Source: Desulfovibrio sp.
GTDB lineage: Bacteria > Desulfobacterota > Desulfovibrionia > Desulfovibrionales > Desulfovibrionaceae
Length of the DNA: 43,147 bases
Reading direction: 5' to 3'
Assembly (NCBI GenBank): GCA_031275465.1
Contig: JAISOT010000212.1
Coordinates: 1 to 43,147 of the forward strand
Under the pieces are notes generated by a model, which worked only from the letters and a program-made list of their open reading frames with translations, did not search any database and was not told the origin of the DNA. How positions within the stretch are numbered: position 1 is the stretch's first letter; each line of letters opens with the position of its first letter. This document shows, piece by piece, positions 79 to 20,806 of this stretch. Position numbers and translations under genes: made by a program.

Positions 79-471
79 TTAGGGCAGCAATTGTTTCGGG
101 GCGCGAAGTTCCACAAGAATGTTGTCCGGCCCGGCGACAAAGGCAATGGCGTCCGACTCGCGCTGTTTCGGCCCCTTGTGCAGACGCACGCCCGGCAAGG
201 CGAGCAAACGGTCAAGCGCCGCCTGCATATCGGGCACTTCCATGCCGATGTGGTCAAAACCCGCGAGCAGAGGTTCTGAGGAAAAAGAAGCGCAGGGTAT
301 GGCCTTGACGTAGAGATAGGCAGAAACGCCGATATTCAGAACCGCTCCGTCACAGGAGCCGAATTTGCGGTACTTCACAAGTTTTGCCTCAAAACCCTTT
401 GTCCAGAATTCCACAGTCTTTTCCAGGTCATTGCAAAACAAATGAATATGGCCCAAAGTGGGTGTGGACAT
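79..471 (-). CDS. VOC/glyoxalase-family protein
   Basis: ~130 aa; LGHIHLFCNDLEKTVEFW, GFDHIGMEVPD and FVAGPDNILVEL are typical VOC motifs; AAGGA RBS upstream. Confidence 0.85.
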   Translation of the reverse strand: MSTPTLGHIHLFCNDLEKTVEFWTKGFEAKLVKYRKFGSCDGAVLNIGVSAYLYVKAIPCASFSSEPLLAGFDHIGMEVPDMQAALDRLLALPGVRLHKGPKQRESDAIAFVAGPDNILVELRAPKQLLP

Positions 472-505
472 CACGCAATCCTTTGTTACAGGGTGATACT
501 TCGTC

Positions 506-1867
506 TCAGGACGCCGCCAGAAGCCGCGTCAGCTCCCGCATGTCCTCAAGCTGTTCCAGCTTTCCGACGGCGTTCAGGATGGCCTCTCTTCTCTGGCTGT
601 TCCATACCGGGGACGCCAAATCATCAAATTTTGCGGCGTACAGCTCCGCTGGAGCCGGGTTCTCCGGTTCGCCCACCGGCAGGGGCACGTTGACGCTTAC
701 CCTGTCCGTGTCGGTAACGATCTCCATGGCAGCGCCGCGAACATTGTTTTCCGCCGAATCAAAAGACGGGTCTTCCACGAAACGGATTTTCCCGAACAGT
801 GCCTGCAACTTCGGATCATTCGCGCTGTCGGGATGGAAGTCGTCAATGCGGGGCTGCCCCTTAACCAGAGCCAGGGCCACGGCAAAGCCGATATTGAAAC
901 GCGCTGTGGCAAGATCCGTGGGCAGCGTTTTTTTGGCAGCCAGATAAATGGCTGTGGGATATGTGGTGACCACAATCTCCCGGACCGCGTCCGGATCCAC
1001 CCTGGAACGCAAAGCAAGCGCCGCGTCAATGGGCGCATGGGTATAACGGCAGGAAGGATAGAATTTCACGTAGCTGCTTTCCACCCCCAAGGGCGACACA
1101 AGCGGCGCCAGCACGATGCCTTCATCAATCTCCTGACCGGAATAGGCATGGAAGAATCCGTCCTTTCCTTCCAGAATATCCGGGGCGCCTTCGGCGCCGA
1201 TAGCCGCCATTTGCGCGGCGGTCACGCCATTGAAGGCAGCCCTGCCCGAATTGTAGGGTTTGAGCGTGCCCCCGCTGTGAAAGGTTATACAGAGCCCTGA
1301 CGCGGACAGGCCCGCAACGCCCAAGGCGTTCAACATGCGCTCGGGATCGAGTTTCATCAGTCTGGCTGCGGCCATGGCGGAGGCCAGTGTGCCCACCACC
1401 CCGGTGGTATGAAAACCCCGGCGCAAGGTGCCCGGGTTGCAGGCCTGCCCCAGACGGACAAACACTTCATACCCCACGACCGCCGCGGTCAAAAAATCTT
1501 CTCCGCTGCTTTGCAGGGCTTCCGCCAGCGGAAAAAGAGCGGAGAAGACGACTACCGCGGGATGGCCGTAAGCGCGTCTGTGCCCGTCATCAAGCTCCAG
1601 CGCATGCCCTGTTATGCCGTTGACCAGAGCGGCCTCGGCGCGGTTTGTCCGGTAGGCGGTGCCGATGATCGCGCTTTCGCCGCTTGCGCATTTCCTGTCG
1701 GCAAGATTCCGCAGCACAATCCCGGCCAAAGCCCCTTGACCGACGCCTCCGGCGAGACTGCCCAAATAATCAATGCAGCGGCTTTTCAGCGCATCCCGAG
1801 CCGGTTTCCCCACTTGCGAAGGCTGCAGGCCGGCAAGAAGCTGCACAAAACGTGGACCTAAAGACAT
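506..1867 (-). CDS. MmgE/PrpD-family protein (not the canonical 2-methylcitrate dehydratase type)
   Basis: 453 aa; HALELDDGH, GHP, GFHTTG, LKPYNSG, KFYPSCRYTH, PVGEPENP; AGGAGG RBS. Confidence 0.9.
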   Translation of the reverse strand: MSLGPRFVQLLAGLQPSQVGKPARDALKSRCIDYLGSLAGGVGQGALAGIVLRNLADRKCASGESAIIGTAYRTNRAEAALVNGITGHALELDDGHRRAYGHPAVVVFSALFPLAEALQSSGEDFLTAAVVGYEVFVRLGQACNPGTLRRGFHTTGVVGTLASAMAAARLMKLDPERMLNALGVAGLSASGLCITFHSGGTLKPYNSGRAAFNGVTAAQMAAIGAEGAPDILEGKDGFFHAYSGQEIDEGIVLAPLVSPLGVESSYVKFYPSCRYTHAPIDAALALRSRVDPDAVREIVVTTYPTAIYLAAKKTLPTDLATARFNIGFAVALALVKGQPRIDDFHPDSANDPKLQALFGKIRFVEDPSFDSAENNVRGAAMEIVTDTDRVSVNVPLPVGEPENPAPAELYAAKFDDLASPVWNSQRREAILNAVGKLEQLEDMRELTRLLAAS

Positions 1868-1923
1868 GGAAACCTCCTGGTTGGGTTAATCCCGTAGCCT
1901 TCGCACAGGCGAATATGCCGTTT

Positions 1924-2340
1924 TCAGGCTTTCTTACTTTGGGCGCGCATGCCTGTTTCAGGCAGGAAAATGCAGCCGATGCCGGCAGCCAAGATCATGA
2001 AGCAACAGGCAATCAAAATGTTCTGCGGACCATAAGAATCCACCAGCCAGCCGTAAACCATGGGCGAGAGTATGGATGCGCCATACCCGACGCCAAACAC
2101 AAGCGTGTAGGAACCTGTAACAATAGCCGGTGTTGAGTTGTCCATTTCCATGGTCACGCCCATCCATAACGAATTGTGGCTTGCCGAACCGAACCCGAGA
2201 AGACCTACCACGACGGGAAGAAAGGCGTTGTCCGGCGAGATGAGCAACGCGCCCAGCGCGCAGACGAACATAAGCATGAAAGCCGGTACCATGAGGGTTT
2301 TGCGCAACCCCAGCCAGCGGGAGAGCAACCCCGATGGACA
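1924..2340 (-). pseudogene. 3' fragment of an MFS transporter
   Basis: Only about four C-terminal TM helices; begins at the loop motif GLLSRWLGLRK and ends PMVYGWLVDSYG...FLPETG; in-frame TGA just upstream and no N-terminal half. Confidence 0.8.
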
Positions 2341-2459
2341 AGAACGATGGCGTCACCGAAACCGATCTTGTACGTTCCCGTCATGTAGCGCACTGAACGC
2401 ATAAATTCGGCATCGCTTTTGCAGAATTCAAAAAACTTTTCAAAATTGATTTTCTTCAT
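2335..2459 (-). pseudogene. 5' fragment of an unknown (possibly SCP2-like) gene joined out of frame to the MFS remnant
   Basis: GAGGAGG RBS and ATG at 2459; MKKINFEKFFEFCKSDAEFMRSVRYMTGTYKIGFGDAIVLV is protein-like, then runs into an off-frame reading of the MFS. Confidence 0.6.
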
Positions 2460-2595: not shown

Positions 2596-2823
2596 CTACC
2601 CGCCGCACATCACAGGCAGCAGCATAACCGTCTCGCCTGCCCTGACTACCCTGTCCGGATTGCAGATCTGCCTGTCAATAGCCAGCAAGGCCTGGCCGCG
2701 TAAAGCTCCTTCGCCGATGGCATCCAAAAAACCATCAATGGTCGTTCCTTCCGGTATCATAACCTCCCGCGGCGGGGCCTTGCGCCAGACCAGACGACAG
2801 TCGACGGTAACCGGAATCATCAT
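2596..2823 (-). CDS. MoaD/ThiS-family sulfur carrier
   Basis: 75 aa, ends LLPVMCGG (C-terminal Gly-Gly); ATGA overlap with the AOR stop. Confidence 0.85.
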   Translation of the reverse strand: MMIPVTVDCRLVWRKAPPREVMIPEGTTIDGFLDAIGEGALRGQALLAIDRQICNPDRVVRAGETVMLLPVMCGG

Positions 2824-4532
2824 CGCCCTCCGGTAAGTTCCAGGAAATCTTCCGGAGTGAAGTCGTAAATCCCGCCGGAATCAGGATTTTTCTCCAGATA
2901 AAAAAATTCCGCCACCCTGTCGGAAGGGGGGCCAAGCCCGGCTTTGCGGTTGAAGCTCCTCTCGTCGTCAAGCGCCCGGGCGGCGAGAGTCTCGGCTTCG
3001 GCGAGGGTAAAGGATGTGCCGAAACGGGCGTTGACCAGACCGATGATCAGCGACATGTCTTTGACGGCCGCCCCAAGCATTATGCACAATCCCAGAGAAT
3101 CCAGAAGCATGATCCCGGCCTGGGCTTTTTTGGCGTTGCCGACCTGCCCTTGTTTTTCGGTTTGTTTAACCTGCAATCTGGTGGTGTTGCCGGCGGTGTG
3201 GTCGGCCCCCATGGCGGACGTGGCGTAGGTCACGCCCGTGCCTTTGACGGAGCGGGGATCATAGGCGGCCATGCTTTGTCCCTTGGCCGTGGGCACCCGG
3301 TATTGGCCCAGGATTTTGCCGGTCATCTCCGCGCCGGAGCCAATGACCCTGGAAAGAATCTCACCCGAAATTATGCCTTTGACGGCCTTTTCCGCGAATT
3401 CGGCGTCGCCGAAAGGGGCGAGCCCCGCCTCCATGGCCACGGCAATTGCCGCGCCAGTGTCGATGGTATCCACCCCCATGTCGTTGCACGCGTGGTTGAG
3501 CCGCGCGATTGCGTCCAGATCGCCGATGCCGCAGTTGGAGCCCAGAAGGCCTATGCTTTCATACTCCAGAGGCGAGACGACGGCTTTTCCGTCCTTGCCG
3601 GGAAAGATGTTTGAACACTTGATGAGGCAGCCGCGCATGCAGCCGTGGCTGGGGTTGCCCTCACCTCCGCGCTCTATGATGGCGTTGTAAAGAGCGCTGC
3701 CGTCTATGGAGCCCGCCTTCTCGAAGGTGCCGCGCGAAAAATTTCGCACGGGCAAGGCCCCCAGTGCGTTGGTGGTGCTGAGCATCGCGCTTGTTCCGAA
3801 TTTGCGGTAGACCTCACTGGTCTGGGGGGTTGCGGCAATCAGGGCTGCCACTTGCCGCAGCCCGGCGGCAAAGGCGGCCTGGTCGGCCATCTTCTCTTTG
3901 GGCGCCGCGGAATCGTCCACCACAACGGCCATAATGCCCTTGGAGGCCAGCACGGCTCCCAGCCCGCCCCGGCCGCTGTAGCGCGAAGGGATGCCTTCGG
4001 GATCGGTGCAGGTGACTCCCGCGCACAGGAGGCGCTGTTCGCCGGCTGGTCCGATAAGAGCCAATCCGGCCCTGGCGCCGTATTTCGCAAACAGTACTCT
4101 GCTTTTCTCATACACGCCAACGCCGGCAAGCTCCGGAGGAGCATGCGTGAGCCTGACGCCCCTGGCGTCAATGTGCAGGATTTGCCAGGCGTCCCCCTCT
4201 GCCGGCCTGCCCTCAAGAATAACGGCCCGAAGGCCCAGGCGTCCCAGTTTGTAAGCCAGCATGCCGCCGGCGTTGCTTTCCTTTATACCGCCTGTCAGCG
4301 GGCTTTTGGCTCCCACCGACAGGCGGTTGGCGCTGGAGACAAGCGTCCCGGCCAGAGGCCCCACAGCAAAAATAATTTTATTGAACGGCCCCAAAGGATG
4401 ACAGGCAGCCGGCACTTCGCGCAGGAGGAATCCCGATGTCATGGCTCTGCCGCCGAGCAGCAGTTGATCCCCGGCCACAGGGGTGTCAACGATTTCCCGC
4501 GTGGCGGTGTTGATACGGAGTATTCTCTGCAT
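2820..4532 (-). CDS. Aldehyde:ferredoxin oxidoreductase family (W/Mo-pterin, 4Fe-4S)
   Basis: 570 aa; AKSPLTGGIKESNAGG, IGPAGE, GRGGLGAV, CMRGCLIKC, LEYES, DMGVDTI, YDPR, DSLGLC. Confidence 0.92.
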   Translation of the reverse strand: MQRILRINTATREIVDTPVAGDQLLLGGRAMTSGFLLREVPAACHPLGPFNKIIFAVGPLAGTLVSSANRLSVGAKSPLTGGIKESNAGGMLAYKLGRLGLRAVILEGRPAEGDAWQILHIDARGVRLTHAPPELAGVGVYEKSRVLFAKYGARAGLALIGPAGEQRLLCAGVTCTDPEGIPSRYSGRGGLGAVLASKGIMAVVVDDSAAPKEKMADQAAFAAGLRQVAALIAATPQTSEVYRKFGTSAMLSTTNALGALPVRNFSRGTFEKAGSIDGSALYNAIIERGGEGNPSHGCMRGCLIKCSNIFPGKDGKAVVSPLEYESIGLLGSNCGIGDLDAIARLNHACNDMGVDTIDTGAAIAVAMEAGLAPFGDAEFAEKAVKGIISGEILSRVIGSGAEMTGKILGQYRVPTAKGQSMAAYDPRSVKGTGVTYATSAMGADHTAGNTTRLQVKQTEKQGQVGNAKKAQAGIMLLDSLGLCIMLGAAVKDMSLIIGLVNARFGTSFTLAEAETLAARALDDERSFNRKAGLGPPSDRVAEFFYLEKNPDSGGIYDFTPEDFLELTGGR

Positions 4533-4568: not shown

Positions 4569-6068
4569 TCACATTCCCGCGGCTGTGCGGGCGGCGATGC
4601 GTCCGAACATCGTCGCTTTGCCGAACGCAGTGCCGGTCATATAGGCGGCACCGTGGAAACCGCCGGTCATCTCCCCCGCGGCCAGAATACCGGGGATAAT
4701 ATCGCCGAATATGTCAATGACCTCGGCTTTCGGAGTGATGCGCACTCCGCTGTAGGTACCAATAATCGCCGCTGTTGAAGGCATGACATAAAACGGGGGT
4801 TTTTCAATCGCGCGCAGTTCTCCAAAGTTGCCGGAAAGATGTTTTCTACCGAATTCCGGATCGCTGCCGCTTTTCACATAGCCGTTGTAGCGCTTGACAG
4901 TTTCTTCAGCAGCTTCAGCGTCGATGCCTGCCTGTTTTGCGGCTTCCTTTATCGTATCAGCCTGGTAAAGAATTCCCGGACGATTTTCAAATTTTGCAAC
5001 AGCTTCAGGGGTTTTCCGTCTTCTTTCATACTCCGCCTCGCGGATAACCGAGTCAAAAACCTGAAATCCGCAACCATCCTTCTGGGCCAGAGCCGCGTCT
5101 CCAAGAAGCTTGTATGAAATTGATTCGTTGACGATACGTTTGCCTGCCTTGTTGAGGATGACAGCGCCGCTGTAATAATACTGCATGTAGTCTTCATTGA
5201 AGATAGAAGGATTCATTGTGACGCCGTATGTTGCCTTCACGTATGGAGTATCAATGAAATCAGCACCATACGCCAAGGCCATTTTGATTCCGTCGCCCTG
5301 CGTGCCAAGGCCGGCGATCACCTTGGCCTTGCGTATGAGCGGGGTATACTGACCCAACAGGTCAGGATTTCTGCAATATCCGCCTGCGGCCAAGATCACG
5401 GCTTTTTTGGCTCCGAAAGTTGTTTCCCTGCTTCGGGATTTCGCCGTCAATCCCACAATTTTTTTCGCCACGTCGTCATAGACCAAGCGCTGGGCCGCGC
5501 AATTGAGAAGAATTTTCGCTCCCTTGTCGGCCGCGTATTTTTGCGTCACCGTGATGAACTGCGGAGGGGATACGAAGTGTCCGCGCGGCACGCTCATACC
5601 GCTGTTCGGTCTTGGATTGGAAATTTGGATGCCCATTTTCTTGAGCCAGTCGTATGTTTCCAGCTGAATATCCATGTAGGCCTTGATAAGCGCCGGGTCA
5701 TTGACATGTCCGCCTACCTCCAGCAGATCTTTGGTAAAAAGCTCCACCGAATCGTTGATGCCCTTCTCTTTTTGGTCCGGCGTGCCCGCAAAAGACATTT
5801 GCCCGCCGCAGATGATGGTTGATCCGCCCAAAATAGGCTGCTTTTCCAGCAGGATGACGGAAAGATCCTTGTCCACGGCTTCACAGGCCGCAGCCAAGCC
5901 GGCCGCGCCGCCGCCGACAATGATGACGTCGGCCTCGTTACCCCACTTTTCCGGCTTAGGAGTGGGCATGGCTGAAGCCGGAACGGCACCCGCGGATGCC
6001 AAGAACGCGCCCGCCGCAACGGCGGCCTTGACAAAATTTCTTCTGTTGACAGCAAAATTTCTGGACAT
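4569..6068 (-). CDS. Tat-exported FAD-dependent oxidoreductase (flavocytochrome c/FAD_binding_2 family), substrate unknown
   Basis: NRRNFVK twin-Arg signal and ASA cleavage site; IIVGGGAAG, LAAGGY, QGDG, AAGEMTGGFHG; no CxxCH. Confidence 0.9.
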   Translation of the reverse strand: MSRNFAVNRRNFVKAAVAAGAFLASAGAVPASAMPTPKPEKWGNEADVIIVGGGAAGLAAACEAVDKDLSVILLEKQPILGGSTIICGGQMSFAGTPDQKEKGINDSVELFTKDLLEVGGHVNDPALIKAYMDIQLETYDWLKKMGIQISNPRPNSGMSVPRGHFVSPPQFITVTQKYAADKGAKILLNCAAQRLVYDDVAKKIVGLTAKSRSRETTFGAKKAVILAAGGYCRNPDLLGQYTPLIRKAKVIAGLGTQGDGIKMALAYGADFIDTPYVKATYGVTMNPSIFNEDYMQYYYSGAVILNKAGKRIVNESISYKLLGDAALAQKDGCGFQVFDSVIREAEYERRRKTPEAVAKFENRPGILYQADTIKEAAKQAGIDAEAAEETVKRYNGYVKSGSDPEFGRKHLSGNFGELRAIEKPPFYVMPSTAAIIGTYSGVRITPKAEVIDIFGDIIPGILAAGEMTGGFHGAAYMTGTAFGKATMFGRIAARTAAGM

Positions 6069-6227: not shown

Positions 6228-6234
6228 AAACGCC

Positions 6235-7674
6235 TCAATAAAGACCGATGAGCTTCCACCAGATGCTCCCCACGCCAAACCAGACCACAAGATGAAGCAC
6301 TGATACCAGGAAACCGCATCTCAGCCAGTCTCCTGACTCCACGTATCCTGTGGCGAAGAAAATGGGGGCCGAACCTCCGCTGTAATACGTCAGGCAGGCC
6401 TGCAGATTACAGAAAAAAGCGATGACCATGGCCGTGAGCATCGGAGGCGTGCCGGCGGCCAGGCCGATAGCCAGGTATGCCGAGTAGACGGCGCTGATGA
6501 GCGCGGTGGAACTGGCGAAACAGTATGCGATATACATGGAGGAGCAGGCCAGGCAGAAAACGATCACCGGCCAGGGAAGACCGCTGATGGTCGAGCCCAG
6601 GCCGCCGGTGATCCACTTGATGACCCCGAGCTTGTTCAGCAGCCCGGCCATGAGGATCAGGCCGGAAAACCACACCAGACAGTCGTAGGCTCCCTTTTCG
6701 GACAAAACGTCCTGCCAGGTCAGCACACCGGCATACACCAGGAAAGTGATGCCTATGAAGGCCGCCGTGGTGGCATCAAGCCCGATGTAGCTTCCCACGA
6801 CCCACATGAACAGCAGCAGGAAAAACGTCCCGAGCATGGTCTTTTCCGGCATGCTCATGGGGCCCATTTCCTTCAGTTTCTCTATGGCCAGCGCGCGCGC
6901 TTCAGGGCTGTGCTTGATCTCCGGGGGATAAATAAAAAGCAGGAACAACGGCACAGAAAGAATGCTCGCGATGGAGGGCGCAAACCCGGCCCACCACCAG
7001 CTCAGCCAGGTGATTTCCACGCCCTGCGCCGCCGCGAAGCCGGCTGCCAGCGTGTTGCCCGCCATGGCCGTCATAAAGGCGGCGCCGACCGGATAGTTTG
7101 TCTGGAAGGAATTGAAGATCAGATAGGAACCGATTTTCCGCTGGGTGCCCAATTCCGGGTCGCTTCCGTAGGCTCTGGCGACGGCCAGGGTCAGGGGGCA
7201 CACGGTTCCGCCCGAACGGGCCGTGCTGGAAGGCATGGCCGGGGCCAGCACGTAGTTGGTGAAACCAAGAGCATAGGCCAAACCCAGTGTGGTATGGCCT
7301 ATTGCCCTGATGAACATATACCCGATGCGGGTGCCCAGACCGGTTTTGGTAAAGCCGCGGGAAATGAAAAAGGCCATGACGATAAGCCAGACGCTGCTGT
7401 TTCCGAACCCGGACACCACCTCCCTGATAGTCAGAACTTTCGTGGCCGACAGCACGGTCAGGGCTGTCATCACTATTGCCCCCAGAGGCATGGGTTTTAC
7501 CAGAAAGCCGAAAATGGTGCTGACGAAAACGGCAAACACTTTCCAGCCTTTGGGATCAATGCCCTCCGGACAGGGGAGGAACCAGAGACATAAAAATAAT
7601 GCCACCACGCATAAGGCCGGACGGACTTTCAACTGTACCTGAAGCCCTTCCATTTTGCCTGTTGTTACAGCCAT
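6235..7674 (-). CDS. DASS-family di/tricarboxylate transporter (CitT/TtdT-like)
   Basis: Very hydrophobic; KTGLGTRIGY, MPSSTARSGG, MTAMAGN, TWQDVLSEKGAYD, GSAPIFFATGYV, WWKLIGL; AAGGAGA RBS. Confidence 0.93.
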   Translation of the reverse strand: MAVTTGKMEGLQVQLKVRPALCVVALFLCLWFLPCPEGIDPKGWKVFAVFVSTIFGFLVKPMPLGAIVMTALTVLSATKVLTIREVVSGFGNSSVWLIVMAFFISRGFTKTGLGTRIGYMFIRAIGHTTLGLAYALGFTNYVLAPAMPSSTARSGGTVCPLTLAVARAYGSDPELGTQRKIGSYLIFNSFQTNYPVGAAFMTAMAGNTLAAGFAAAQGVEITWLSWWWAGFAPSIASILSVPLFLLFIYPPEIKHSPEARALAIEKLKEMGPMSMPEKTMLGTFFLLLFMWVVGSYIGLDATTAAFIGITFLVYAGVLTWQDVLSEKGAYDCLVWFSGLILMAGLLNKLGVIKWITGGLGSTISGLPWPVIVFCLACSSMYIAYCFASSTALISAVYSAYLAIGLAAGTPPMLTAMVIAFFCNLQACLTYYSGGSAPIFFATGYVESGDWLRCGFLVSVLHLVVWFGVGSIWWKLIGLY

Positions 7675-7824
7675 TCGCATTCTCCTTTTGAGAGATGTCT
7701 GAAAAGTGTCGGTCGACGAACGCTTTTTCCGGCAACATCGCTGTGCTGCACCAATTTTGGGAGTATGCCCTTCGCGGCCCGACGCCTCCGACCTGTTTGA
7801 CGTTCAAAGCACATCCAGGGGGTG

Positions 7825-12965: not shown

Positions 12966-12994
12966 TATTGCATCTATGTTGCTATAGTGTTGCA
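12966..12994. promoter_or_regulatory. Candidate activator binding site, 11-bp-period direct repeat
   Basis: TATTGC-ATCTA-TGTTGC-TATAG-TGTTGC; AT-rich tract 12900-12965 lies between it and the promoter. Confidence 0.55.
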
Positions 12995-13031
12995 GAAAAA
13001 ATCTGATGAACGCCGGAACAGCGAGGCCACA

Positions 13032-14909
13032 ATGACAAAACCCATTCTTTTCATCGTGCCTTATGGAGCCATGACCAGGGAAAGGATGACCGCCTATTCC
13101 AGACAATACCCGAACATTGCCTTTGACAGCGTCGATCCCTTGCGGCCGCTGGACAAATTCCGGCGAACGCTGCGAAAATCCACCGAAATAGTGGCCGCAC
13201 GCGGCTCTACCGCCCAGGAAATAAAGCGCGCTTATCCCAATCTGCATGTCGTGGATATTCCCATCACCGCATACGATGTCATACGCGCCATAAACGCCGC
13301 TGACCATTACGGCAAAACCGTCGCTGTCATTACCAGCTACACGGACATTATCGGCCTTGATGTTTTGGCCATGCCCTACAACATACGCATCCGCAACCAT
13401 CTGCTTACCTCTGTTGAAAAGCTCCATGAAACCATCAGCAAGGCCATGGACATGGGCGCGGACATGATCATGGGCGGGGCGCTCACCAGAAAAGTCGCCA
13501 TGGATATGAACGTCCCGGTCGTGTATCTCCCCTTTGGGCCGGAAAGCATGCAACAGGTGCTGAAGGAGGTGCAGCATATCCAGACCGCCATTGAAACCGA
13601 AGCCGTTGAGAAAAATTTTGTCAACAGACTGCTTGACAATATCATAGAAGGGGTGGTCGCCGTTGATGCCCGCAATGCCATCAGATCCGTCAATGCGGCG
13701 GCGAGACACATTCTGGGCCTTTCAGGCCGCGCTCTTCTTGGGGAGTCTCTGGAAGCGCTGGCGCCGACGTTTTCTCCCCAAACCGGGAAAAATCAGGCAG
13801 AAGAACTGGCTTCCATACGGGGAAACATGGTGATGCTTAACAGGATCCCCGTTATGTACCGGAACCGCTGCCTCGGCACCATCTTCACCCTGCATGAAGG
13901 CCGGAAAATTGAGACAATGGAGAAGATTATCCGCAGAAAAATGTATACCAAACCGCATACAGTCCGGTACACGTTTGCGGATGTCATGGGAAAAAGTCCG
14001 GCCATACGGCGGGCCATCGAAAACGGAAAAAGTTACGCGCGCACCGAATCCAGTATTCTGATTACCGGAGAATCCGGATGCGGCAAGGAGATTTTCGCCC
14101 AAAGCATTCATCACGAGAGCGCGCGAAGGGAGCACCCCTTTGTGGCGGTCAACTGCGCGGCGCTGTCCAAGGATTTGCTGCAGAGCGAGCTTTTCGGTTA
14201 TGTGGAAGGGGCATTCACAGGCGCCTTGCGCCAGGGCAAGATGGGCCTGTTTGAGTTTGCCCACAGGGGCACCATATTTCTTGATGAAATTGCGGAAATG
14301 GACTATGCCAACCAGGGCAATCTTCTCCGCGTCATCCAGGAACGCTACGTGATCCGCCTGGGCAGTCACAACCCCGTTTTTGTCAATGTCCGCGTCATTG
14401 CGGCCACCAACAAGAACCTGACCCAACTGGTGCGGGAAGGGAAATTCCGCAACGATCTCTATTACCGCCTCAACGTGCTGGCTCTTGAAATTCCCCCCCT
14501 GCGGGAAAGAAAGCAGGATATCGCCTCACTTCTGCTGCATTTTCTCCACGAACATCCTTCAGCGTACCGGGGCAGATTCGTATTGCGTGAAGACGCGGAA
14601 GAAGCCCTCTCCCGGTATTCATGGCCCGGCAATGTGCGCGAATTGAGCAATATAGCCGAACGTCTTGCCGCCACTGCCAAAGGGTGCGAAATTACCCGGC
14701 AACAATTGTCGGCGTCCATGCACCTGCCCGATGCTCCCGCACCGGGAATATACCGGGAACGTCTGGACGCGATCAACCACAAAAAAGACCTCCAGCTTCA
14801 GGAAATCAAGCAGGCGATTGCCGCCTGCGACGGCAACCTCGGGCAGGCTGCCCGCGAACTGAACATCAACCGGACGACGCTCTGGCGGCGCATCAGACGG
14901 CTGCCCTGA
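13032..14909 (+). CDS. PrpR-like sigma54-dependent activator (PrpR_N, PAS, AAA+, Fis HTH)
   Basis: ARGSTA and VVDIPITAYD (PrpR_N); GESGCGKE, SELFGYVEGAFTGA, FLDEI, FRNDLYYRL, WPGNVREL, INRTTLWR. Confidence 0.93.
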   Translation: MTKPILFIVPYGAMTRERMTAYSRQYPNIAFDSVDPLRPLDKFRRTLRKSTEIVAARGSTAQEIKRAYPNLHVVDIPITAYDVIRAINAADHYGKTVAVITSYTDIIGLDVLAMPYNIRIRNHLLTSVEKLHETISKAMDMGADMIMGGALTRKVAMDMNVPVVYLPFGPESMQQVLKEVQHIQTAIETEAVEKNFVNRLLDNIIEGVVAVDARNAIRSVNAAARHILGLSGRALLGESLEALAPTFSPQTGKNQAEELASIRGNMVMLNRIPVMYRNRCLGTIFTLHEGRKIETMEKIIRRKMYTKPHTVRYTFADVMGKSPAIRRAIENGKSYARTESSILITGESGCGKEIFAQSIHHESARREHPFVAVNCAALSKDLLQSELFGYVEGAFTGALRQGKMGLFEFAHRGTIFLDEIAEMDYANQGNLLRVIQERYVIRLGSHNPVFVNVRVIAATNKNLTQLVREGKFRNDLYYRLNVLALEIPPLRERKQDIASLLLHFLHEHPSAYRGRFVLREDAEEALSRYSWPGNVRELSNIAERLAATAKGCEITRQQLSASMHLPDAPAPGIYRERLDAINHKKDLQLQEIKQAIAACDGNLGQAARELNINRTTLWRRIRRLP

Positions 14910-14981: not shown

Positions 14982-16544
14982 TCAACGCCTCTTGATTTGC
15001 CGTATCACATCAATAACGGTGCCGTCGCGGTACTCAACCAGAGTAACAATTTTGTCGGTGCACGGCATCGGTTTGGGCACCCCCAAAAGACGTTCCGCAA
15101 CACGCTGCAATTCCTCAATTGATACCAGTTTCAGGCGGCTCTTCTCCAGATTTTCCTTGAGCAGGGGGTACGTCTTGTGCTTCGGGTTGAGGGCTGTGCC
15201 CGCCTCGGTGACAACCGCGGCCACGGTTTCTCCGGGGGTGCACAGAGTAAAGACGCTTTTTACCACCGAAGGGGTTCGTCCACGCACAATGGGCAACGTC
15301 ACGATGGGAACTTGCGCGCCGGCGGCCACGTCGGGCCCGCCGCCCAGGCCGCCCATCATTTCTCCGCTGGAGCCGGTAAGAATGTTCACATTGAAATCTA
15401 CGTCAACCTCCAACGCTCCCAGAATGCCGAAGGTCAATTGGTTCACCATGTTGCCCTTGCCAAAAATATTCGCATAGACGCTGTTGTCGCATTCCACAAT
15501 ATTGGGATTCGAGGTCATGGCCCTCGCCGCGACCGAGTCAAAGCACTGGCTGCACTGGATGGTGCGGATAAGACCGCGCTGAAACATTTCCACGATAGCC
15601 GAGGTGGAACCACCAAGGGAAAAACTCGCCTGTATGCCCTTTTCCTCCGTCAAATCAGCCAGATAATTGGTGCAGGCGATACTGATGGCGCCTGCCCCGG
15701 TCTGGAAGGAGTAGCCGTCCGCGAAGAGGCCCGAATGCGCTATGAACTGCGCGGCTGATTCCGCAATGAGCAGATCCCGGGGATTTTTGGTGACGCGGGC
15801 CGCGCCCTTCCCGATTTTTTCGCTGTCGCCTATCTGATCCACCACGACGACAAAATCGACGTCCTGTTGGGATATGCTGGCGGGAACACAGGGATAGTCC
15901 ACCAGGCAATCGGTGATGACCACAACCCGGCCGGCGCATCTGGCGTCAATGAACGAATAGCCCAGGGCGCCGCAGGCGTTGGGGCCAGTCAGGCCAGTGG
16001 CATTACCGTATTCGTCGGCGCTGGATGCCCCGATAAAGGCTACGTCAATTTCCAGCTCTCCCGTTTCTATCGCCATGGGCCGGGCGCCATGAGGACGAAG
16101 GATGACGGGATTGTCCATAAGCCCGTCAATGACCGCATCGCCGAGCTGGCCGCGGATGCCGCTGGCCTCAATACGGTCTATTGTGCCGTCCCTGACGAAA
16201 TCGACAATGGACGGATTGCGTATGTTGATGACCGCGCTCGGCGCGAAGCGAAGCCTTTTTATGCCCAGTTCGCGAATGACCGTGAGCACCTGACCGATAA
16301 TCATATCTCCTTCGCGGAAACTGTGATGAAAAGAAATGGTCATGCCGTCCTCAAGCCCGACGGCCCTGACGGCATCTTTCAACGATGCCCGCCGCTTGCT
16401 TTCTCCCGGCCGAAGCAGCGTCAGTCTGCGCTTGCTGCGCACCGGAACATCCGCCGGCACAACGGAAAAAGGCCCCATATAGGGTTTGAGTGCGCGTCCG
16501 TTCAGTATTTCCGGAATTTTTCTACCAGCGCTGTTAACGATCAT
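14982..16544 (-). CDS. citF: Citrate lyase alpha subunit / ACP transferase homologue (divergent)
   Basis: DGMTISFHH, FQTGAG, ALEVDVDFNVN, VRGR, VEYRDGTVID; follows citD and citE. Confidence 0.9.
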   Translation of the reverse strand: MIVNSAGRKIPEILNGRALKPYMGPFSVVPADVPVRSKRRLTLLRPGESKRRASLKDAVRAVGLEDGMTISFHHSFREGDMIIGQVLTVIRELGIKRLRFAPSAVINIRNPSIVDFVRDGTIDRIEASGIRGQLGDAVIDGLMDNPVILRPHGARPMAIETGELEIDVAFIGASSADEYGNATGLTGPNACGALGYSFIDARCAGRVVVITDCLVDYPCVPASISQQDVDFVVVVDQIGDSEKIGKGAARVTKNPRDLLIAESAAQFIAHSGLFADGYSFQTGAGAISIACTNYLADLTEEKGIQASFSLGGSTSAIVEMFQRGLIRTIQCSQCFDSVAARAMTSNPNIVECDNSVYANIFGKGNMVNQLTFGILGALEVDVDFNVNILTGSSGEMMGGLGGGPDVAAGAQVPIVTLPIVRGRTPSVVKSVFTLCTPGETVAAVVTEAGTALNPKHKTYPLLKENLEKSRLKLVSIEELQRVAERLLGVPKPMPCTDKIVTLVEYRDGTVIDVIRQIKRR

Positions 16545-17437
16545 GAGTCGCCTCCAATCCTGATTCCCGCTGCCCTGGCCATGGCAATGACATTCTGGGC
16601 GCGGATGACGATGGGTTTGTCTATCATGCTGCCGTCAAGGGACACGGCTCCCTTGTTCAGGCGTTCGCCTTCCTCTATGGCGTCCAGCACTCGAAGGGCA
16701 TGGTTGATTTCTCTTTGCGTCGGCGTAAACGCCGCGTTGATGATGTCCACCTGACGCGGATGTATGGCCGTCTTGCCGTCAAATCCCAGGGTTTTTGTCA
16801 TCCTGGCGTCAATCTTCAGCCCCTCCACGTCGTTGACGTCAGAAAACAGCGCATCAATGGCGTCAACCCCTGCCGCCCGGCAGGCCATAAGAATGGCGTT
16901 TCTCGCAAAGAAGATTTCCCATCCCTCCTTGGTGCGCCGGGAACGCATACTGGCGGTGAAATCCTCGGCTCCCAGAATCAGCGCTTCCACCCTGGGGCTG
17001 GCCTCGGCGATTTCCTTTGCGTTAAGAACCCCGATATGGGATTCAAGCGTGCACCACAGCTTTACGCCGCCTTCCTCCATGCCGGCCGCCTTTTCTATGG
17101 CGCTGATCTTGCCGTCGATCTCCCGCACTTCCCCGGCTGCCTCCACCTTGGGGATACGCAGCGCATCCGGCCGCGCCCGCACCGATGCCTCAAGGTCTTC
17201 GTTGAAGTAACGCGAGTAGATGCCGTTGACGCGTATCTGCACATGCTTGTCCTTGGGGCGGTGCCGGCGCACCATGTTGCAGACCAGAAAGCGGGCCGCG
17301 TCCTTATCCGCCGGAGGGACGGAATCTTCCAGATCATAAACCTGGCAGTCCTGATTGTAGAACCCGGCCTGTATCATGTTTACGACGCTGGCGCCGCTGG
17401 CGTAAAGGGAAGTCCTTTTGAGGCTGCTACTGGGCAT
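16541..17437 (-). CDS. citE: Citrate lyase beta subunit / acyl-ACP lyase homologue
   Basis: DLEDSV, IRVNG, RIPKVE, GAEDF, LGFDGKTAIHPRQ, DGSMIDKP; start MPSSSL after AAGGAGG. Confidence 0.9.
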   Translation of the reverse strand: MPSSSLKRTSLYASGASVVNMIQAGFYNQDCQVYDLEDSVPPADKDAARFLVCNMVRRHRPKDKHVQIRVNGIYSRYFNEDLEASVRARPDALRIPKVEAAGEVREIDGKISAIEKAAGMEEGGVKLWCTLESHIGVLNAKEIAEASPRVEALILGAEDFTASMRSRRTKEGWEIFFARNAILMACRAAGVDAIDALFSDVNDVEGLKIDARMTKTLGFDGKTAIHPRQVDIINAAFTPTQREINHALRVLDAIEEGERLNKGAVSLDGSMIDKPIVIRAQNVIAMARAAGIRIGGDS

Positions 17438-17735
17438 GGGGATCCTCCTTGGACCAATCGTACTGAATTTCGCCCGCACGACAGATCACAGCCTGCATGC
17501 GGGAACGGATAACGGCATCAATCGCCCCTTTGTCATTGAGCGATACATGCGCCTCCTCAACCCCGAATTCTCCAAGCACGCTGCGTACCGTTGCGAGGAT
17601 GGAATCCCCGAACTGCATTTTGACGACGCTTTCCAGTTCAAGCTCAATCCCCTTGCCGGGATTGGGAGCAATGGTGACTTGAATATCGCTGGATTCCAGC
17701 GTCCCGGCAATAGCGTTTTTTTTCAGCTCCAACAT
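17427..17735 (-). CDS. citD: Citrate lyase acyl carrier protein (gamma)
   Basis: AGTLESSD (prosthetic-group Ser), QFG, DKGA; 102 aa after AAGGAGG. Confidence 0.93.
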   Translation of the reverse strand: MLELKKNAIAGTLESSDIQVTIAPNPGKGIELELESVVKMQFGDSILATVRSVLGEFGVEEAHVSLNDKGAIDAVIRSRMQAVICRAGEIQYDWSKEDPHAQ

Positions 17736-18837
17736 GCATTTTCCCTCCTTGGTTGTCCTGAGCCGCTGTTTCCGCTGAAAGAAACGGCTCGCACCGCGCA
17801 TCTCCATTGTTTCGCAGTTTTGCAAGAATGGCTGCCGCTTCCTCCCCCTCCAGAAAAAGTCTGGTGCTTTCCGGCACCAGACAATGCAGGGATGCGCAGG
17901 GGCCTGACTCCCGCAAAATCTTCCTGACGATTGACGCGCTGACAGTGTGCCCTCCTGCCCGCAATCTCGGAATAATTTCCAGCGCAATGCCGTAGTCCGG
18001 CAGAATGCGGCGCATGGCCGCGTTGTACTTTTCCGTCAGCTCGCAATACGGCTCCTCGCCGGCGAAACGCCGCCGGATGGAGAACGGCGGCGCGATGCCG
18101 CAGGCGAAAATGGTAATGTCGAGCTCCGCGCAAACATCTGTCGCCTCATCAACCGACTTGAGAAAATACGTCGGGAACGTGGCGGCGGAAATCATATACG
18201 GCCCGCTGTCATGGATACGGACATTGGGTATATCCGCCGTGCCTTCACGCAAAAGGCGCTTGCGCACGTGAAACGGAAAAATTGAACGATCTTCCTCCAC
18301 AAGAAAAATATGCAGCACAGGACAGCGGGCGGCGGCATATTCGATGAGATGGCGGTGTCCCAGGGTAAACGGATTGCAGTTCATGACAACGGCGCCCGAA
18401 GGAGTATGCGCGTCTCCCGGGGACAGGCTTTTTTCGGCGAAGCGCGAGAAGCCGTTGTTCAGATTTTCAAGAAGCATCGCCCGCGGTGTTGCCGCAACAA
18501 CGAAAAAGCCGCTCTGTTGAAAAAAAACACCGTTTTCCGGTTTGGTAAACACCAGAAGGCGGGTGTTTCCGCGCTGGAACTGCCATGTGGAAAGACGGGA
18601 AAGTATGGATCCGAGCAGATTGCGCCCCCGGGCCTCCTCATTGACCGCGAAGCACTTGAGCACCCGTCCGGAGCAGCAGCCGCAGGCGATCAACGCATCG
18701 TTTTCATCATACGCGCCCACGGCGTACTCTATATCCTCTTCATACCGCAGGCCGTGCCGTTCCAGAAAATCGCCCAACGTGCGCCGTTCCCGTTCGGAGC
18801 GGGGATACACTTCCCGCAGGGCAAAAGAATCGCTCAT
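17644..18837 (-). CDS. citC: [Citrate lyase] ligase
   Basis: GNAT-like N-terminus; VMNCNPFTLGHRHL, YMISAATFPTYF, GEEPYC, SASIVR. Confidence 0.92.
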   Translation of the reverse strand: MSDSFALREVYPRSERERRTLGDFLERHGLRYEEDIEYAVGAYDENDALIACGCCSGRVLKCFAVNEEARGRNLLGSILSRLSTWQFQRGNTRLLVFTKPENGVFFQQSGFFVVAATPRAMLLENLNNGFSRFAEKSLSPGDAHTPSGAVVMNCNPFTLGHRHLIEYAAARCPVLHIFLVEEDRSIFPFHVRKRLLREGTADIPNVRIHDSGPYMISAATFPTYFLKSVDEATDVCAELDITIFACGIAPPFSIRRRFAGEEPYCELTEKYNAAMRRILPDYGIALEIIPRLRAGGHTVSASIVRKILRESGPCASLHCLVPESTRLFLEGEEAAAILAKLRNNGDARCEPFLSAETAAQDNQGGKMHVGAEKKRYCRDAGIQRYSSHHCSQSRQGD

Positions 18838-18940
18838 ATCCCCAGACCGTTTCCCAAAATGCCCTTAACCCCTCTGCATTCGGCGTTAGAGCGAATTACC
18901 GTTGAAAATGTATACGTTGTTCTGCAGGCGTATGCTCCAA

Positions 18941-18956
18941 TGCAAAAATCACTCCA
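18941..18956 (-). promoter_or_regulatory. sigma54 -24/-12 promoter upstream of citC
   Basis: Minus strand TGGAGTGATTTTTGCA (GG-N10-GC with TTGCA). Confidence 0.6.
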
Positions 18957-18995
18957 AAGCAGAAATTTATGCCCTGCGGCGGTTTTTTTGTCTTG

Positions 18996-19012
18996 TGTTG
19001 CAGTTATGTTGC
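18996..19012. promoter_or_regulatory. Second copy of TGTTGC-N5-TGTTGC
   Basis: TGTTGC-AGTTA-TGTTGC, same hexamer and spacing as 12977-12993. Confidence 0.55.
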
Positions 19013-19206
19013 GGCGTTGTGAAAGAATCTGCCAATCCTGGGAATTCCGGTTTTCACGCCTTGCGCTTTTGCCTGCGGAGAGTATGCTTTTGCCGGAAGG
19101 CGCAAGGAGCGGGTCGCGGAGCATGGCCTTTTGCGCGAGGCTGTTCTCGCGCGGGGGCATGCCTTGAGTTGCTCGATCAGGCCGCAATCGAAAAACAGGC
19201 ACCACC

Positions 19207-19758
19207 TTGGCTCAAAACCAGAATATTTTCGAACCGCTCAGCGGTTTCGCCGGCTTGCAGGCCATCCTGGACAATCGCGAAGAGCGCGTGACGCGTCAGA
19301 GAGAAATGCTCAGGCAGTACGCGTCGCCGCTGGTTTCCTTTACAGTCAATATGCCCGGAGCGTCAAAAAACAATATTGCCGCCCTTCGCATTTTTCGGGA
19401 GGGAATGAAGTCCGTGGAAAGGCTCATAGCCGGGAATGGTTGGGCCGTTCTCGCGCAACGCCGCCATTCGTCCCCTGCCGGCCCGGAGGCTCTTGCGTGC
19501 GTGCAGGCGGCGCCGTATGACCTCAAGCGGGCCATGCTCCTGCTTGAGGAAAACCACCCTTTGGGACGCCTGTTTGATTTTGACGTTCTGACTCCGGAAG
19601 GCCGCGGCATTTCCCGCGCCCGTTTCGGCAAGCCAATGCGGTCCTGCTTCCTTTGCGGCAATCCGGCCGCCCTCTGCGCCCGTGAACAAAAGCACAGTCT
19701 TGAGGCGCTGCAGAATCATATCAGGGAACTGCTCCTTCCCTTTCCACCATGTGAATGA
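19207..19758 (+). CDS. citX: Citrate lyase holo-ACP synthase
   Basis: LDNREERV.RQ, FTVNMPG, GPEA, LEENHPLGRLFDFDV, RSCFLCG..A..CAR. Confidence 0.9.
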   Translation: MAQNQNIFEPLSGFAGLQAILDNREERVTRQREMLRQYASPLVSFTVNMPGASKNNIAALRIFREGMKSVERLIAGNGWAVLAQRRHSSPAGPEALACVQAAPYDLKRAMLLLEENHPLGRLFDFDVLTPEGRGISRARFGKPMRSCFLCGNPAALCAREQKHSLEALQNHIRELLLPFPPCE

Positions 19759-20806
19759 AAAGGGCCAAACTCAGCATATCGGCGCTCCCGCCCGGGCTCA
19801 ACCGCCTGGAAAGACACAGTTCACGCAGCAGGGCAAGACCCTCTCTGCCTTTTTTGGTCAGCATACCCCGGTGTTCCAGAACTCTGTCCGCCCCTTTCTG
19901 TACTAGGGCGAGCCCCTCGGGCCCTCCACGCCAGAGCAGATTTGTATCCGCGTTATTCTTCATCAGAAAAAGCAGCGTGTTGACCAATGCCGCGTTATAA
20001 TCCCCTTCTTCCAGCCATCCCCGCAAGGCGGCCACAGCCTGGGGAAGAAGCGGGAAACCCCGCTCGGCCTCACCCCTTACCCCTGTCACTCCGAAACGGA
20101 GGTATATCCATTCGCCTGCCGTCAGAGCGCGCCCAAGGGCTTGCTCTGCCCGTTCGACGCATTCTGCTTCTCCCTTCCCCGCCAGTTCCCTGAGACGGCA
20201 AAAGTCACGGGCAACAATTCCCTCCACAAAAGAAGAAGCCGTCCCGCACAGCGACGCCGCCGACAATTTTTCGTCCGCGGCAAGCAGTCTGCCTGCGGCG
20301 GCGCAAAAAAGCCCCATGGAAAAAATAAGTCCCTTGTGGGTGTTCACCCCGCAGGTCACGGCGAACATTGCGCGTTCAGCCTCCCGTCCTTCCCCGCGCA
20401 GCAGGGGAAATACGGCCCGGGCTTCAAGGCCGGCCGTGTCCCTGCCGATGTCCGCCACATCCCGAAAATAGGGATACAGGCTGACGGCGCTCGCAATCAT
20501 GGTTTGAATATCCATGTCCGTGTGCACTCCGGCCGTGTCAGCGCAAACCAGTCCCGGTTTTTCCGTGGCCGCCGCTTCGTGGAGAACAGCGCGCAGAGCG
20601 CATGAGGCAATCATGTCCGCCTGCCGCGCGTGAGGAGTTAAGGACGCATTCACCGCCGCGCTCTTCTGTAACAACGCGCGCGACAGCTCACAGCGGGCGC
20701 CGGGCGTGACTTCCGGCAGGCCGCGCGAAGCGTTTGCCAGAAAGGAGGCAGCCCCGAAAGCCATATTTCGGGGCTGTACATTAAGGCCTTGCACACATTT
20801 TTGCAC
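19721..20806 (-). CDS. citG: Triphosphoribosyl-dephospho-CoA synthase
   Basis: KPGLV, HTDMD, GVNTHKGLIF, GVRGEA, DTNLLWRGG, LSPGGSADML; start codon uncertain. Confidence 0.9.
   Translation of the reverse strand: MQKCVQGLNVQPRNMAFGAASFLANASRGLPEVTPGARCELSRALLQKSAAVNASLTPHARQADMIASCALRAVLHEAAATEKPGLVCADTAGVHTDMDIQTMIASAVSLYPYFRDVADIGRDTAGLEARAVFPLLRGEGREAERAMFAVTCGVNTHKGLIFSMGLFCAAAGRLLAADEKLSAASLCGTASSFVEGIVARDFCRLRELAGKGEAECVERAEQALGRALTAGEWIYLRFGVTGVRGEAERGFPLLPQAVAALRGWLEEGDYNAALVNTLLFLMKNNADTNLLWRGGPEGLALVQKGADRVLEHRGMLTKKGREGLALLRELCLSRRLSPGGSADMLSLALFIHMVEREGAVP

Follow-up and report, generated by a model that had tools for sequence, protein, structure and literature searches.

A candidate sigma-54-controlled gene cluster for the anaerobic metabolism of homocitrate-type acids in Desulfovibrio sp.

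The window analysed here, a stretch of 43,147 nucleotides of Desulfovibrio sp. DNA (contig JAISOT010000212.1; the source genome is referred to as G000), carries between positions 79 and 20,806 a cluster of genes for a fumarate reductase-like pair (FrdAB), a class I Fe-S hydro-lyase, a citrate lyase-like system and a PrpR-like activator. An original prediction, made from the sequence alone, described it as a sigma-54 regulon for carboxylic acid catabolism. Family scans of the main open reading frames of the window (43, and then 14 more) found every gene named in that prediction, including citC, citD, citE, citF, citX and citG, and gave no match to the malate dehydrogenase (MDH), malic enzyme or oxaloacetate decarboxylase (OAD) families, as it had also stated. 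Our reading, to which we assign a probability of about one half, is that the cluster encodes an anaerobic pathway for (S)-homocitrate, trans-homoaconitate and 3-carboxyadipate, where acetate and 2-oxoglutarate would arise from the cleavage of (S)-homocitrate by the lyase.

Two transcription units make up most of the cluster (Table 1). In the first, frdA, frdB, the beta and alpha genes of the hydro-lyase and the gene for an Fe-S/cytochrome b protein are separated by intergenic gaps of 2 to 35 bases, and the activator gene is divergent from this operon. The cit genes form the second unit, convergent on the activator gene; citX and citG follow, and then a tRNA-Ala gene. The direct repeat GCAACA-N5-GCAACA lies upstream of both frdA and citC. 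These are its only two copies in the window, against 0 in 100 shuffled sequences; genome-wide there are 3 copies where 0.47 are expected, and other spacings give 0 to 5 copies. (The third genomic copy, on contig C157 at 13620 of the reverse strand, is near the contig end with no evident target, and is probably there by chance.) The repeat is also found upstream of frdA and citC in L001, a Desulfovibrio metagenome-assembled genome that is the nearest named relative, and upstream of frdA in G703, a complete genome of the same genus. L001 has a near-identical -24/-12 site 5' of frdA and a near-consensus site 5' of citC, while in the frdA site of G703 GA replaces GC at -12. A loose sigma-54 consensus with one mismatch has 12 matches in the window for 10.4 expected, which is chance level, and a scan for sigma-70 promoters and terminators yielded nothing usable. 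The activator scores below the PrpR equivalog cut-off; since it carries a GAFTGA motif, a match to RpoN is present in G000, and the -24/-12 sites and the upstream repeat are shared, the frdA and cit operons are likely to be under one sigma-54 activator.

Table 1. Features of the cluster and of its predicted control regions, in window coordinates.
Feature	Position	Strand	Remarks
VOC/glyoxalase-family protein	79..474	-	PF00903
MmgE/PrpD-family protein	506..1867	-	PF03972/PF19305
Truncated MFS fragment, accessory insertion	1924..2352	-	weak match to PF07690; 142 codons between stops
ThiS/MoaD-like protein, accessory insertion	2596..2823	-	PF02597
Aldehyde:ferredoxin oxidoreductase (AOR)-like protein, accessory insertion	2820..4532	-	PF01314/PF02730
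Tat-signal flavocytochrome-c-type flavoprotein, accessory insertion	4569..6068	-	TIGR01813 above cut-off
DASS carrier	6235..7680	-	TIGR00785 above cut-off
2x[4Fe-4S] + cytochrome b protein	7825..8808	-	PF13237 + PF01292
Class I Fe-S hydro-lyase alpha subunit, distinct clade	8844..9707	-	PF05681
Hydro-lyase beta subunit	9715..10224	-	PF05683
FrdB-like Fe-S subunit	10227..10937	-	[2Fe-2S]-type motif + two [4Fe-4S] motifs
FrdA-like flavoprotein	10950..12587	-	PF00890
PrpR-like sigma-54 activator (PrpR_N, PAS, AAA+, HTH)	ORF 12747..14909, likely start 13032	+	GAFTGA present
Predicted sigma-54 -24/-12 site, frdA operon	12793..12807	-	TGGCATGATTCTGGC
GCAACA-N5-GCAACA direct repeat 5' of frdA, predicted activator site	12977..12993	-	
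CitF, acyl carrier protein (ACP) transferase subunit	14982..16544	-	TIGR01584 above cut-off
CitE-like lyase subunit, distinct clade	16541..17437	-	TIGR01588, 304 vs cut-off 443 bits
CitD acyl carrier protein	17427..17732	-	TIGR01608 above cut-off
CitC acetate:ACP ligase	17644..18837	-	TIGR00124 above cut-off
Weak predicted sigma-54 site 5' of citC	18940..18957	-	GG-N10-GC with TTGCA
Second GCAACA-N5-GCAACA repeat, 5' of citC	18996..19012	-	
CitX	19207..19758	+	PF03802
CitG, true start probably further in	19721..20806	-	PF01874; TIGR03125, 255 vs cut-off 272
tRNA-Ala(CGC), cluster edge	20833..20908	-	

Among 111 genomes of the genus, the hydro-lyase, FrdA and CitE of the window type (for CitE, 72% identity or more) occur in the same four (G000, G703, G737 and G781), and CitE matches in 19 others reach at most 43%. 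G703 has on one strand, in order, frdA, frdB, hydro-lyase beta, hydro-lyase alpha, the Fe-S/cytochrome b gene, a DASS carrier gene, prpD, citC, citD, citE and citF, and the run continues after citF with kor (a four-subunit 2-oxoacid:ferredoxin oxidoreductase), sucCD, DASS, activator, citX and citG; its hydro-lyase contains P0012, a protein named Desulfovibrio piger by its source. In L001 the proteins are 57-87% identical to those of the window and stand in the same order. Among individual components, orthologues in L001, G703 and G781 are 42-57% identical for the activator and 58-73% for the PrpD-like protein; the DASS orthologues (59-87%) keep their position in L001 and G703, and a VOC orthologue (62%) occupies the same place in L001. 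Beyond the genus, 2 further genomes were positive in a sample of 400 from the phylum, a sample of Clostridia yielded a single window-type CitE in 399 scored genomes, its short contig lacking the hydro-lyase, and a plasmid collection gave no hydro-lyase match at E 1e-40. On account of the co-distribution, the operon fusion in G703 and the shared upstream repeat the core genes constitute, as far as sequence can show, one conserved unit, in agreement with the single regulon originally proposed. The Tat flavoprotein, AOR and MoaD, also proposed as pathway members, do not belong to it: together with the MFS fragment they are absent from the loci of L001 and G703, where prpD comes directly after the DASS gene, and for this reason we treat them as a local insertion outside the conserved core. 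The insertion (1924-6068) has the same GC content as the core (0.57), and its Tat flavoprotein does not retain the fumarate-binding His/Arg positions of the Shewanella enzymes.

For a wider comparison of the hydro-lyase we collected 93 locus units from genomes and metagenomes (two fragment pairs being merged), of which 35 are methanogen-like and 58 are not. The window subunits fall well short of the family cut-offs (104 against 276 bits for alpha, 69 against 145 bits for beta), and alpha is 27% identical to the canonical fumarase of G000. Compared with 7XKY and the Leishmania enzymes, and with the residue roles that we take to hold in Leishmania fumarase, the class I fold, the three cluster Cys regions and the catalytic Asp, Arg-Asp, Thr and GKG elements are present. 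The canonical motifs CQDTG, GSEN, THIA and TTSGR are replaced by CDDTG, GPEIR, RASG and TSSNK; those of alpha (CDDTG, GGGPEIR and RASGxR) are near-invariant across the whole clade, and in beta GPT[ST]SNK stands for GPTTSGR. A tartrate dehydratase was rejected, as alpha scores 51 bits against 365 for TtdA. A Frd pair occurs in 33 of the 58 non-methanogen-like units, and 24 of these 33 have a citrate-type cleavage system on the same fragment: CitE/F in 8, a citryl-CoA synthetase-like ligase in 16, both in none. This ligase is usually accompanied by a citryl-CoA lyase-like gene. PrpD is found in 11 of the 33 Frd-bearing units and VOC in 1; MoaD is in 0 of the 93.

FrdA is likewise set apart from its relatives, with scores below the TfrA, NadB and SdhA cut-offs (336 against 718 bits for TfrA). 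The catalytic dicarboxylate residues His/Glu/Arg/His/Arg are retained (in QFHPT, SEALR, TRD, QHY and NRL), and we take these and the pocket residues to have the same roles as in E. coli FrdA. All 18 hydro-lyase-linked rows of the alignment have Asn for the FAD-site His and Pro for the pocket Phe (L047 has DAN), the pocket Pro being found in 0 of 14 other rows; the canonical FrdA of G000 has His and Phe at the two positions, and the related soluble FrdA of L172 retains the Phe. In NadB-type rows the pocket position is a Glu that presumably binds the amino group of the substrate, and therefore this position is expected to face the C2 substituent. The FAD is predicted to be non-covalent. FrdB gave no CCG domain match. 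The Fe-S/cytochrome b protein, with two CxxCxxCxxxCP motifs and 5 His invariant in 8 homologues, is encoded in 15 of the 33 Frd-bearing loci and is predicted to connect FrdAB to the quinone pool. The second [4Fe-4S] motif and a non-covalently bound FAD point to low potentials, and thus favour, by a small degree, operation of FrdAB in the reducing direction. By analogy with TcuAB, a similar design that oxidises, oxidation of 3-carboxyadipate by FrdAB is also possible.

CitF is 42-47% identical to four reference CitF proteins; CitE is 37-41% identical to reference citrate lyases (40% to that of E. coli) and 44% to the lyase of Peptoclostridium acidaminophilum (L118), which adjoins glutamate mutase and methylaspartase (MAL). 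In the tree CitE is a long-stem sister of the canonical citrate lyases (support 98/87), apart from the citramalate-context group. It has CTLESH, DALF and GKT where canonical enzymes have AAIES, DTV[YF] and GKS, and likewise differs from the PLIET and DTPF of the citramalate-context lyases, lacking the DxPF proline and Leu. In the CitE family a Pro and a Trp contact the methyl group of pyruvate, as reported in PMC3832036; their probable counterparts are the motifs DxPF and GKW. Those CitE proteins that occur in linkage with the hydro-lyase form several separate clades with differing pocket residues, which suggests that the cleavage step was recruited more than once.

The PrpD-like protein reaches 51-65 bits against PrpD cut-offs of 458-950. 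It retains the His/Asp/His/His/Lys/Lys set of the family, and has Leu in place of the Tyr (145/148) of the IDS epimerase, which is the second catalytic base in methylsuccinate isomerase and IDS epimerase (PMC12290011); PrpD eliminates syn (PMC3556520). It is thus predicted to be a syn hydro-lyase. The DASS carrier, 30% identical to E. coli CitT, is a predicted substrate/product antiporter, and the VOC protein is, by analogy, possibly a lactonase.

Because three pockets are altered, while G000 has separate canonical enzymes (FrdA, fumarase, MDH, TcuA, TcuB and isocitrate dehydrogenase (IDH), all above curated cut-offs, and a canonical FrdABCD), neither fumarate nor citramalate is a likely substrate. 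Two MAL homologues adjoining the hydro-lyase, one beside window-type citDEF (L106:7961-18506) and the other in L064:3190-5843, have Ala or Ser at the position of Leu384. The L384A mutant of MAL accepts larger 2-substituted fumarates (PMC7586795), and the mutation lowers kcat on methylaspartate 1760-fold (PMC7241714). Together with the FrdA, hydro-lyase and CitE pockets, these residues make it likely that the enoate is a fumarate whose substituent exceeds methyl in size. The free-acid route of the original prediction (saturated acid <-> enoate <-> 3-hydroxy acid -> acetate plus 2-oxo acid), with a substrate other than fumarate, is supported by these pockets together with the co-distribution, the operon fusion and the shared repeat. 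Its three candidate acids fare less well: for tricarballylate, G000 possesses a separate tcuAB-aconitase-icd operon; glutaconate/3-hydroxyglutarate lacks the alpha-carboxylate bound by this type of lyase and by the hydro-lyases; and citramalate is considered below. As separate observations, L106 also encodes an amidohydrolase and a flavin reductase, as might be expected if the ring of an N-heterocyclic acid were opened to give a 3-substituted aspartate, and a lone MAL homologue on contig C137 of G000 (11014-12258, reverse strand) has Tyr at the Leu384 position.

In the pathway that we propose, the acid would be imported by the DASS carrier. The PrpD-like enzyme would interconvert cis-homoaconitate and (S)-homocitrate by syn chemistry, and the Fe-S hydro-lyase, as predicted trans-homoaconitate hydratase, would catalyse the corresponding anti reaction between trans-homoaconitate and (S)-homocitrate, in the way that mesaconate is handled by class I fumarases. 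The acetyl-ACP lyase CitDEF, activated by CitC, CitX and CitG, and with CitE as predicted (S)-homocitryl-ACP lyase, would then yield acetate and 2-oxoglutarate, which Kor and SucCD would oxidise to succinate and CO2 with formation of ATP and reduced ferredoxin. FrdAB, predicted to be a trans-homoaconitate/3-carboxyadipate oxidoreductase, would with the Fe-S/cytochrome b protein reduce trans-homoaconitate to 3-carboxyadipate as an electron sink. In sum, the steps would make up a dismutation with balanced redox: 2 homocitrate -> acetate + succinate + CO2 + 3-carboxyadipate.

Homocitrate is favoured over citrate on four counts, the first being the neighbourhood of the lyase. Kor and SucC(D) genes come after citF in G703 and G781, and SucCD after citF in L043; in the 93 locus units, probes found no MDH, no OadA and no decarboxylase of the FAH type, and malic enzyme in 1. 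An operon with Kor/Suc but without an oxaloacetate enzyme, aconitase or IDH is in keeping with 2-oxoglutarate as the product of the lyase. HacAB-type genes are found in 6 of the 93 units and Iso_dh genes in 5. The best NCBIfam model for the Iso_dh of L033 is homoisocitrate dehydrogenase (HICDH), below cut-off; in the region that sets specificity these proteins match HICDH best, the N-terminal half of that of L061 matching Thermus HICDH (E 7.5e-23) more strongly than an IDH (9.7e-18); and in the four Iso_dh proteins that were aligned, Ile replaces the Asn of IDHs. The hydro-lyase clade is moreover present in 73 of the 81 genomes from the order to which the Methanobacterium G789 belongs. In these methanogens 2-oxoglutarate is formed reductively, their homocitrate-type acids serve coenzyme B and methanofuran, and to our knowledge they do not use citrate-type intermediates; trans-homoaconitate and (S)-homocitrate reportedly occur in methanogens. 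The stereochemistry also agrees: anti addition of water to the trans enoate by a class I hydro-lyase gives the (S) alcohol, a cit-type lyase cleaves the same arm of the (S) alcohol, and with a syn PrpD the three enzymes would converge on one alcohol. The Kor/Suc linkage, the HICDH-like and HacAB neighbours, the methanogen clade and this stereochemistry are the reasons for which we favour homocitrate.

A number of observations weigh against this assignment. Kor/Suc is unlinked to the cluster in G000, where it forms a stand-alone module on contig C86; SucC matches are found in 20 of the 111 same-genus genomes, with stand-alone kor-suc in other congeners; G737 has only a 40% SucC match, elsewhere in its genome; and the two Kor-linked genomes, G703 and G781, are congeners and not independent. 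In G857 a canonical-clade citrate lyase lies near korAB, although with aconitase, IDH and OadA beside it, and G703 has aconitase and IDH far from its cluster, so that citrate could reach 2-oxoglutarate. The original prediction had raised the case of mdh and oad genes elsewhere completing an ordinary citrate fermentation: an MDH above the curated cut-off and two malic enzyme matches do lie on other contigs of G000, and a malic enzyme gene is near the lyase in L043, whereas OAD beta was not found in G000, whose assembly is 89.7% complete. The co-occurrence that the same prediction proposed as a check holds for the four genomes given above and breaks down in G154, which has FrdAB and the hydro-lyase, with no window-type CitE found (best 42%; genome 86% complete). 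The spread of CitE clades implies that the substituent may vary between loci. The locus units cannot be counted as independent (the proteins of L020 and L029, for example, are near-identical), many are short, and 80 of the 546 alpha-subunit relatives found by the metagenome scan were kept. The literature searched documents no homoaconitate fermentation, and for (S)-homocitrate or trans-homoaconitate no source in the diet or the gut. Although 3-carboxyadipate is listed as a human faecal metabolite, and '2-methylcitrate/homocitrate' also appears in such tables (PMC7712156, PMC9063241), these rows show that the compounds occur, not who makes them.

The alternative that survives best, although we consider it unlikely, is the six-carbon series, in which trans-aconitate would be converted to citrate and cleaved to acetate and oxaloacetate, part of it being reduced to tricarballylate, with PrpD handling cis-aconitate. 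A fermentation of this kind, in which trans-aconitate passes through citrate, is reported for Acidaminococcus fermentans (PMC3035267). CitF, CitD and CitC pass the citrate lyase cut-offs, CitE is sister to the canonical enzymes and keeps the hydroxyl residue at GK[ST], many loci have citryl-CoA synthetase/lyase-like and Tct genes, and the MDH and malic enzymes of G000 could be counted in. The long stem and sub-cut-off score of CitE speak on the other side, as do the linkage of citF to Kor/Suc in two genomes, the lack of an MDH, OadA or FAH match in the 93 units, the neighbouring dehydrogenases that resemble HICDH, and the presence in G000, G737 and G781 of tcuAB and aconitase; the methanogen copies would be left without an evident role. 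Even under this alternative, genes would be named for the hydration and reduction of trans-aconitate. The tcuAB genes of G000 are in an operon on contig C45 (L240, 11637-21388) together with genes for an aconitase-family hydratase, IDH and a carrier of the DcuC type, and a second PrpR-like activator is encoded divergently from it; tcuAB with the hydratase also occur in G737 and G781, and the operon suggests the use of tricarballylate by Desulfovibrio.

Less probable still is another 2-substituted malate/fumarate, whether homo2-citrate (cleaved to 2-oxoadipate), a homocitrate with a 2-oxo or 2-hydroxy group, an alkylmalate or several of these. The widened pockets do not fix the chain length, and SucCD-type ligases may accept glutarate. 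Distant members of the clade are found with RraA/CHA-aldolase, a dehydrogenase and Tct (L005, L014), or adjoin glycan-tailoring cassettes (L006, L090, L101) and CoA transferases (L046, L052). Against these possibilities, the KorA, KorB, SucC and SucD of G703 are 73-85% identical to those of the stand-alone modules of congeners and G000, and the G000 module, with its GlcDF-like dehydrogenase and DASS carrier, fits 2-oxoglutarate. This module (C86:8755-17828, L241) is arranged as korDABC-sucCD-DASS-GlcD/GlcF-like and is probably for 2-oxoglutarate or 2-hydroxyglutarate; similar kor-suc-DASS modules occur in G068, G221 and G190.

We regard as improbable a route from methylsuccinate through mesaconate to (S)-citramalate, cleaved to pyruvate and acetate, with PrpD as the methylsuccinate isomerase. 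It has precedents in the hydration of mesaconate by class I fumarases and in the cit annotation given to the citramalate lyase genes of clostridia (PMC4682846), and a methylsuccinate cluster of pseudomonads holds a PrpD-family isomerase and a VOC protein (PMC12290011). The window CitE, however, has neither the Pro and Leu of the citramalate-context lyases nor a place in their group, the PrpD-like protein is without the catalytic Tyr of the isomerase, the linked MAL homologues are without Leu384, and pyruvate would not call for Kor and SucCD. Furthermore, glutamate mutase gave no match in G000 by tblastn with GlmE and GlmS of L118 (one query each, in a genome 89.7% complete). The least probable alternative is an ordinary fermentation of citrate to succinate, or a segment of the reductive tricarboxylic acid cycle, with a divergent iso-functional fumarase and fumarate reductase: the gene set (Frd, fumarase, citrate cleavage, Kor, Suc) does resemble that cycle, some loci have aconitase-like and IDH-like genes, and FrdA keeps its catalytic residues, yet the enzymes would be redundant with the canonical FrdABCD and fumarase of G000, the pocket changes are invariant, the soluble FrdA of L172 keeps its Phe, and MDH is in none of the 93 units. 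A sulfopropionate/sulfoacrylate route was dropped without direct test, as the linked enzymes are citrate-type lyases.

At the positions that define specificity, the cluster departs from each known system with which it can be compared. It shares with the citrate lyase systems of E. coli, Klebsiella and Enterococcus the six genes CitCDEFXG, the ACP architecture and the predicted acetate product, but its CitE is divergent, its activator is PrpR-like and not CitAB/CitI, a hydro-lyase and a reductase are linked to it, and the locus has no gene to consume oxaloacetate; such a linked gene is common, if not universal, in citrate lyase loci. The mesaconase and citramalate lyase of the methylaspartate pathway of Clostridium tetanomorphum are alike in that a two-subunit class I hydro-lyase precedes an ACP-dependent lyase and the acids are free, whereas the window has a different CitE pocket and clade and an added enoate reductase module, glutamate mutase is without a match, and the linked MAL homologues have Ala/Ser384. 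The TcuAB of Salmonella resembles FrdAB by functional analogy, as a flavoprotein with an Fe-S/haem membrane partner acting on a saturated tricarboxylate; the window proteins have no TcuA or TcuB match among the matches listed, unlike the proteins of contig C45, and their route would go through a trans enoate and a lyase rather than aconitase and IDH. TfrAB-type soluble fumarate reductases share the FrdA fold, the FAD-site Asn and the two [4Fe-4S] motifs of FrdB, and differ from the window proteins, which have the pocket Pro and a cytochrome b partner and neither a CCG domain nor an Hdr/Flx module; the N-terminal extension of the window FrdA is shared with L172. Finally, the characterised MmgE/PrpD proteins (2-methylcitrate dehydratase, methylsuccinate isomerase, IDS epimerase and cis-aconitate decarboxylase) have the same dicarboxylate-binding residue set, while the window protein is below their cut-offs and lacks the epimerase Tyr, and the window lacks methylcitrate synthase and PrpB.

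If homocitrate is the substrate, three activities would be involved, homocitrate lyase, trans-homoaconitate hydratase and homoaconitate reductase, that were not found in the literature searched, in a new anaerobic route for a seven-carbon acid that would be a source or sink of faecal 3-carboxyadipate. Specifically, we found no mention of homocitrate lyase, homocitryl-CoA or homoaconitate reductase, no work on the biosynthesis of the hexanetetracarboxylic part of methanofuran, and for Desulfovibrio piger with citrate lyase one unrelated review, in searches largely confined to literature outside the subscription journals. The main text of a preprint on gut reductases (10.1101/2022.12.26.521950) has no aconitate, tricarballylate, carboxyadipate or Desulfovibrio. 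The proposal is directly testable, since the G703 cluster protein is identical to one recorded under the name of Desulfovibrio piger, which lives in the gut and can be cultured. The labels fumarase, fumarate reductase and citrate lyase that these genes carry are likely to be wrong for this clade.

A broader picture, which we put forward only tentatively and consider doubtful, is that of an undescribed (S)-homocitrate hub. Gut Desulfovibrio and sediment anaerobes would ferment or respire homoaconitate, making or consuming faecal 3-carboxyadipate, and Methanobacteriales would run the reactions biosynthetically; the parts would be a homocitrate lyase of at least 2 origins (ACP and CoA type), the trans-homoaconitate hydratase and the homoaconitate reductase. 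In the methanogen-like loci prpD, a U32-peptidase-like gene, the alpha subunit and a citryl-CoA-lyase-like gene form a run (L003, L004 and 33 other loci), many of them adjoining the ATP synthase operon, and their products would build the hexanetetracarboxylate end of methanofuran. About seven genes of methanofuran synthesis were listed as unknown in 2011 (PMC3087415), and those of the run may be candidates for the unassigned side-chain steps.

Some further observations concern relatives of the cluster and the remainder of the genome. In L005 and L014 the dehydrogenase is of the DUF1932 type and the carrier is TctABC, and these loci may act on oxalomesaconate-like acids. Within the glycan loci L006, L090 and L101 the hydro-lyase is accompanied by a U32-like protein, a C-C bond lyase and an ATP-grasp ligase, and in L006 and L101 by PrpD. 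L163 (G787:C7) is a paralogous operon with a FrdA that has Leu at the pocket position, FrdB, a fused fumarase-like protein, a SucCD-like ligase, a CitE-like lyase, HMGL-like and HdrC/B-like proteins and PrpD, probably for another substituted succinate. G000 is rich in organic-acid operons: C62:7331-10834 has three RraA-like genes, a TRAP carrier and a 2-hydroxyacid-dehydrogenase-like gene, and in C91:10225-15527 the gene for the canonical fumarase precedes those for a CitT-like carrier and HacAB-like proteins and one that is LarA-like by eye. Elsewhere in the window, and unrelated to the cluster, are a stand-alone Hpt protein (21009-21536, forward strand), a glycogen cluster with a glycogen synthase-phosphorylase fusion of 1448 amino acids (21673-30842, reverse strand) and a YefM-YoeB toxin-antitoxin pair (41618-42162, reverse strand).

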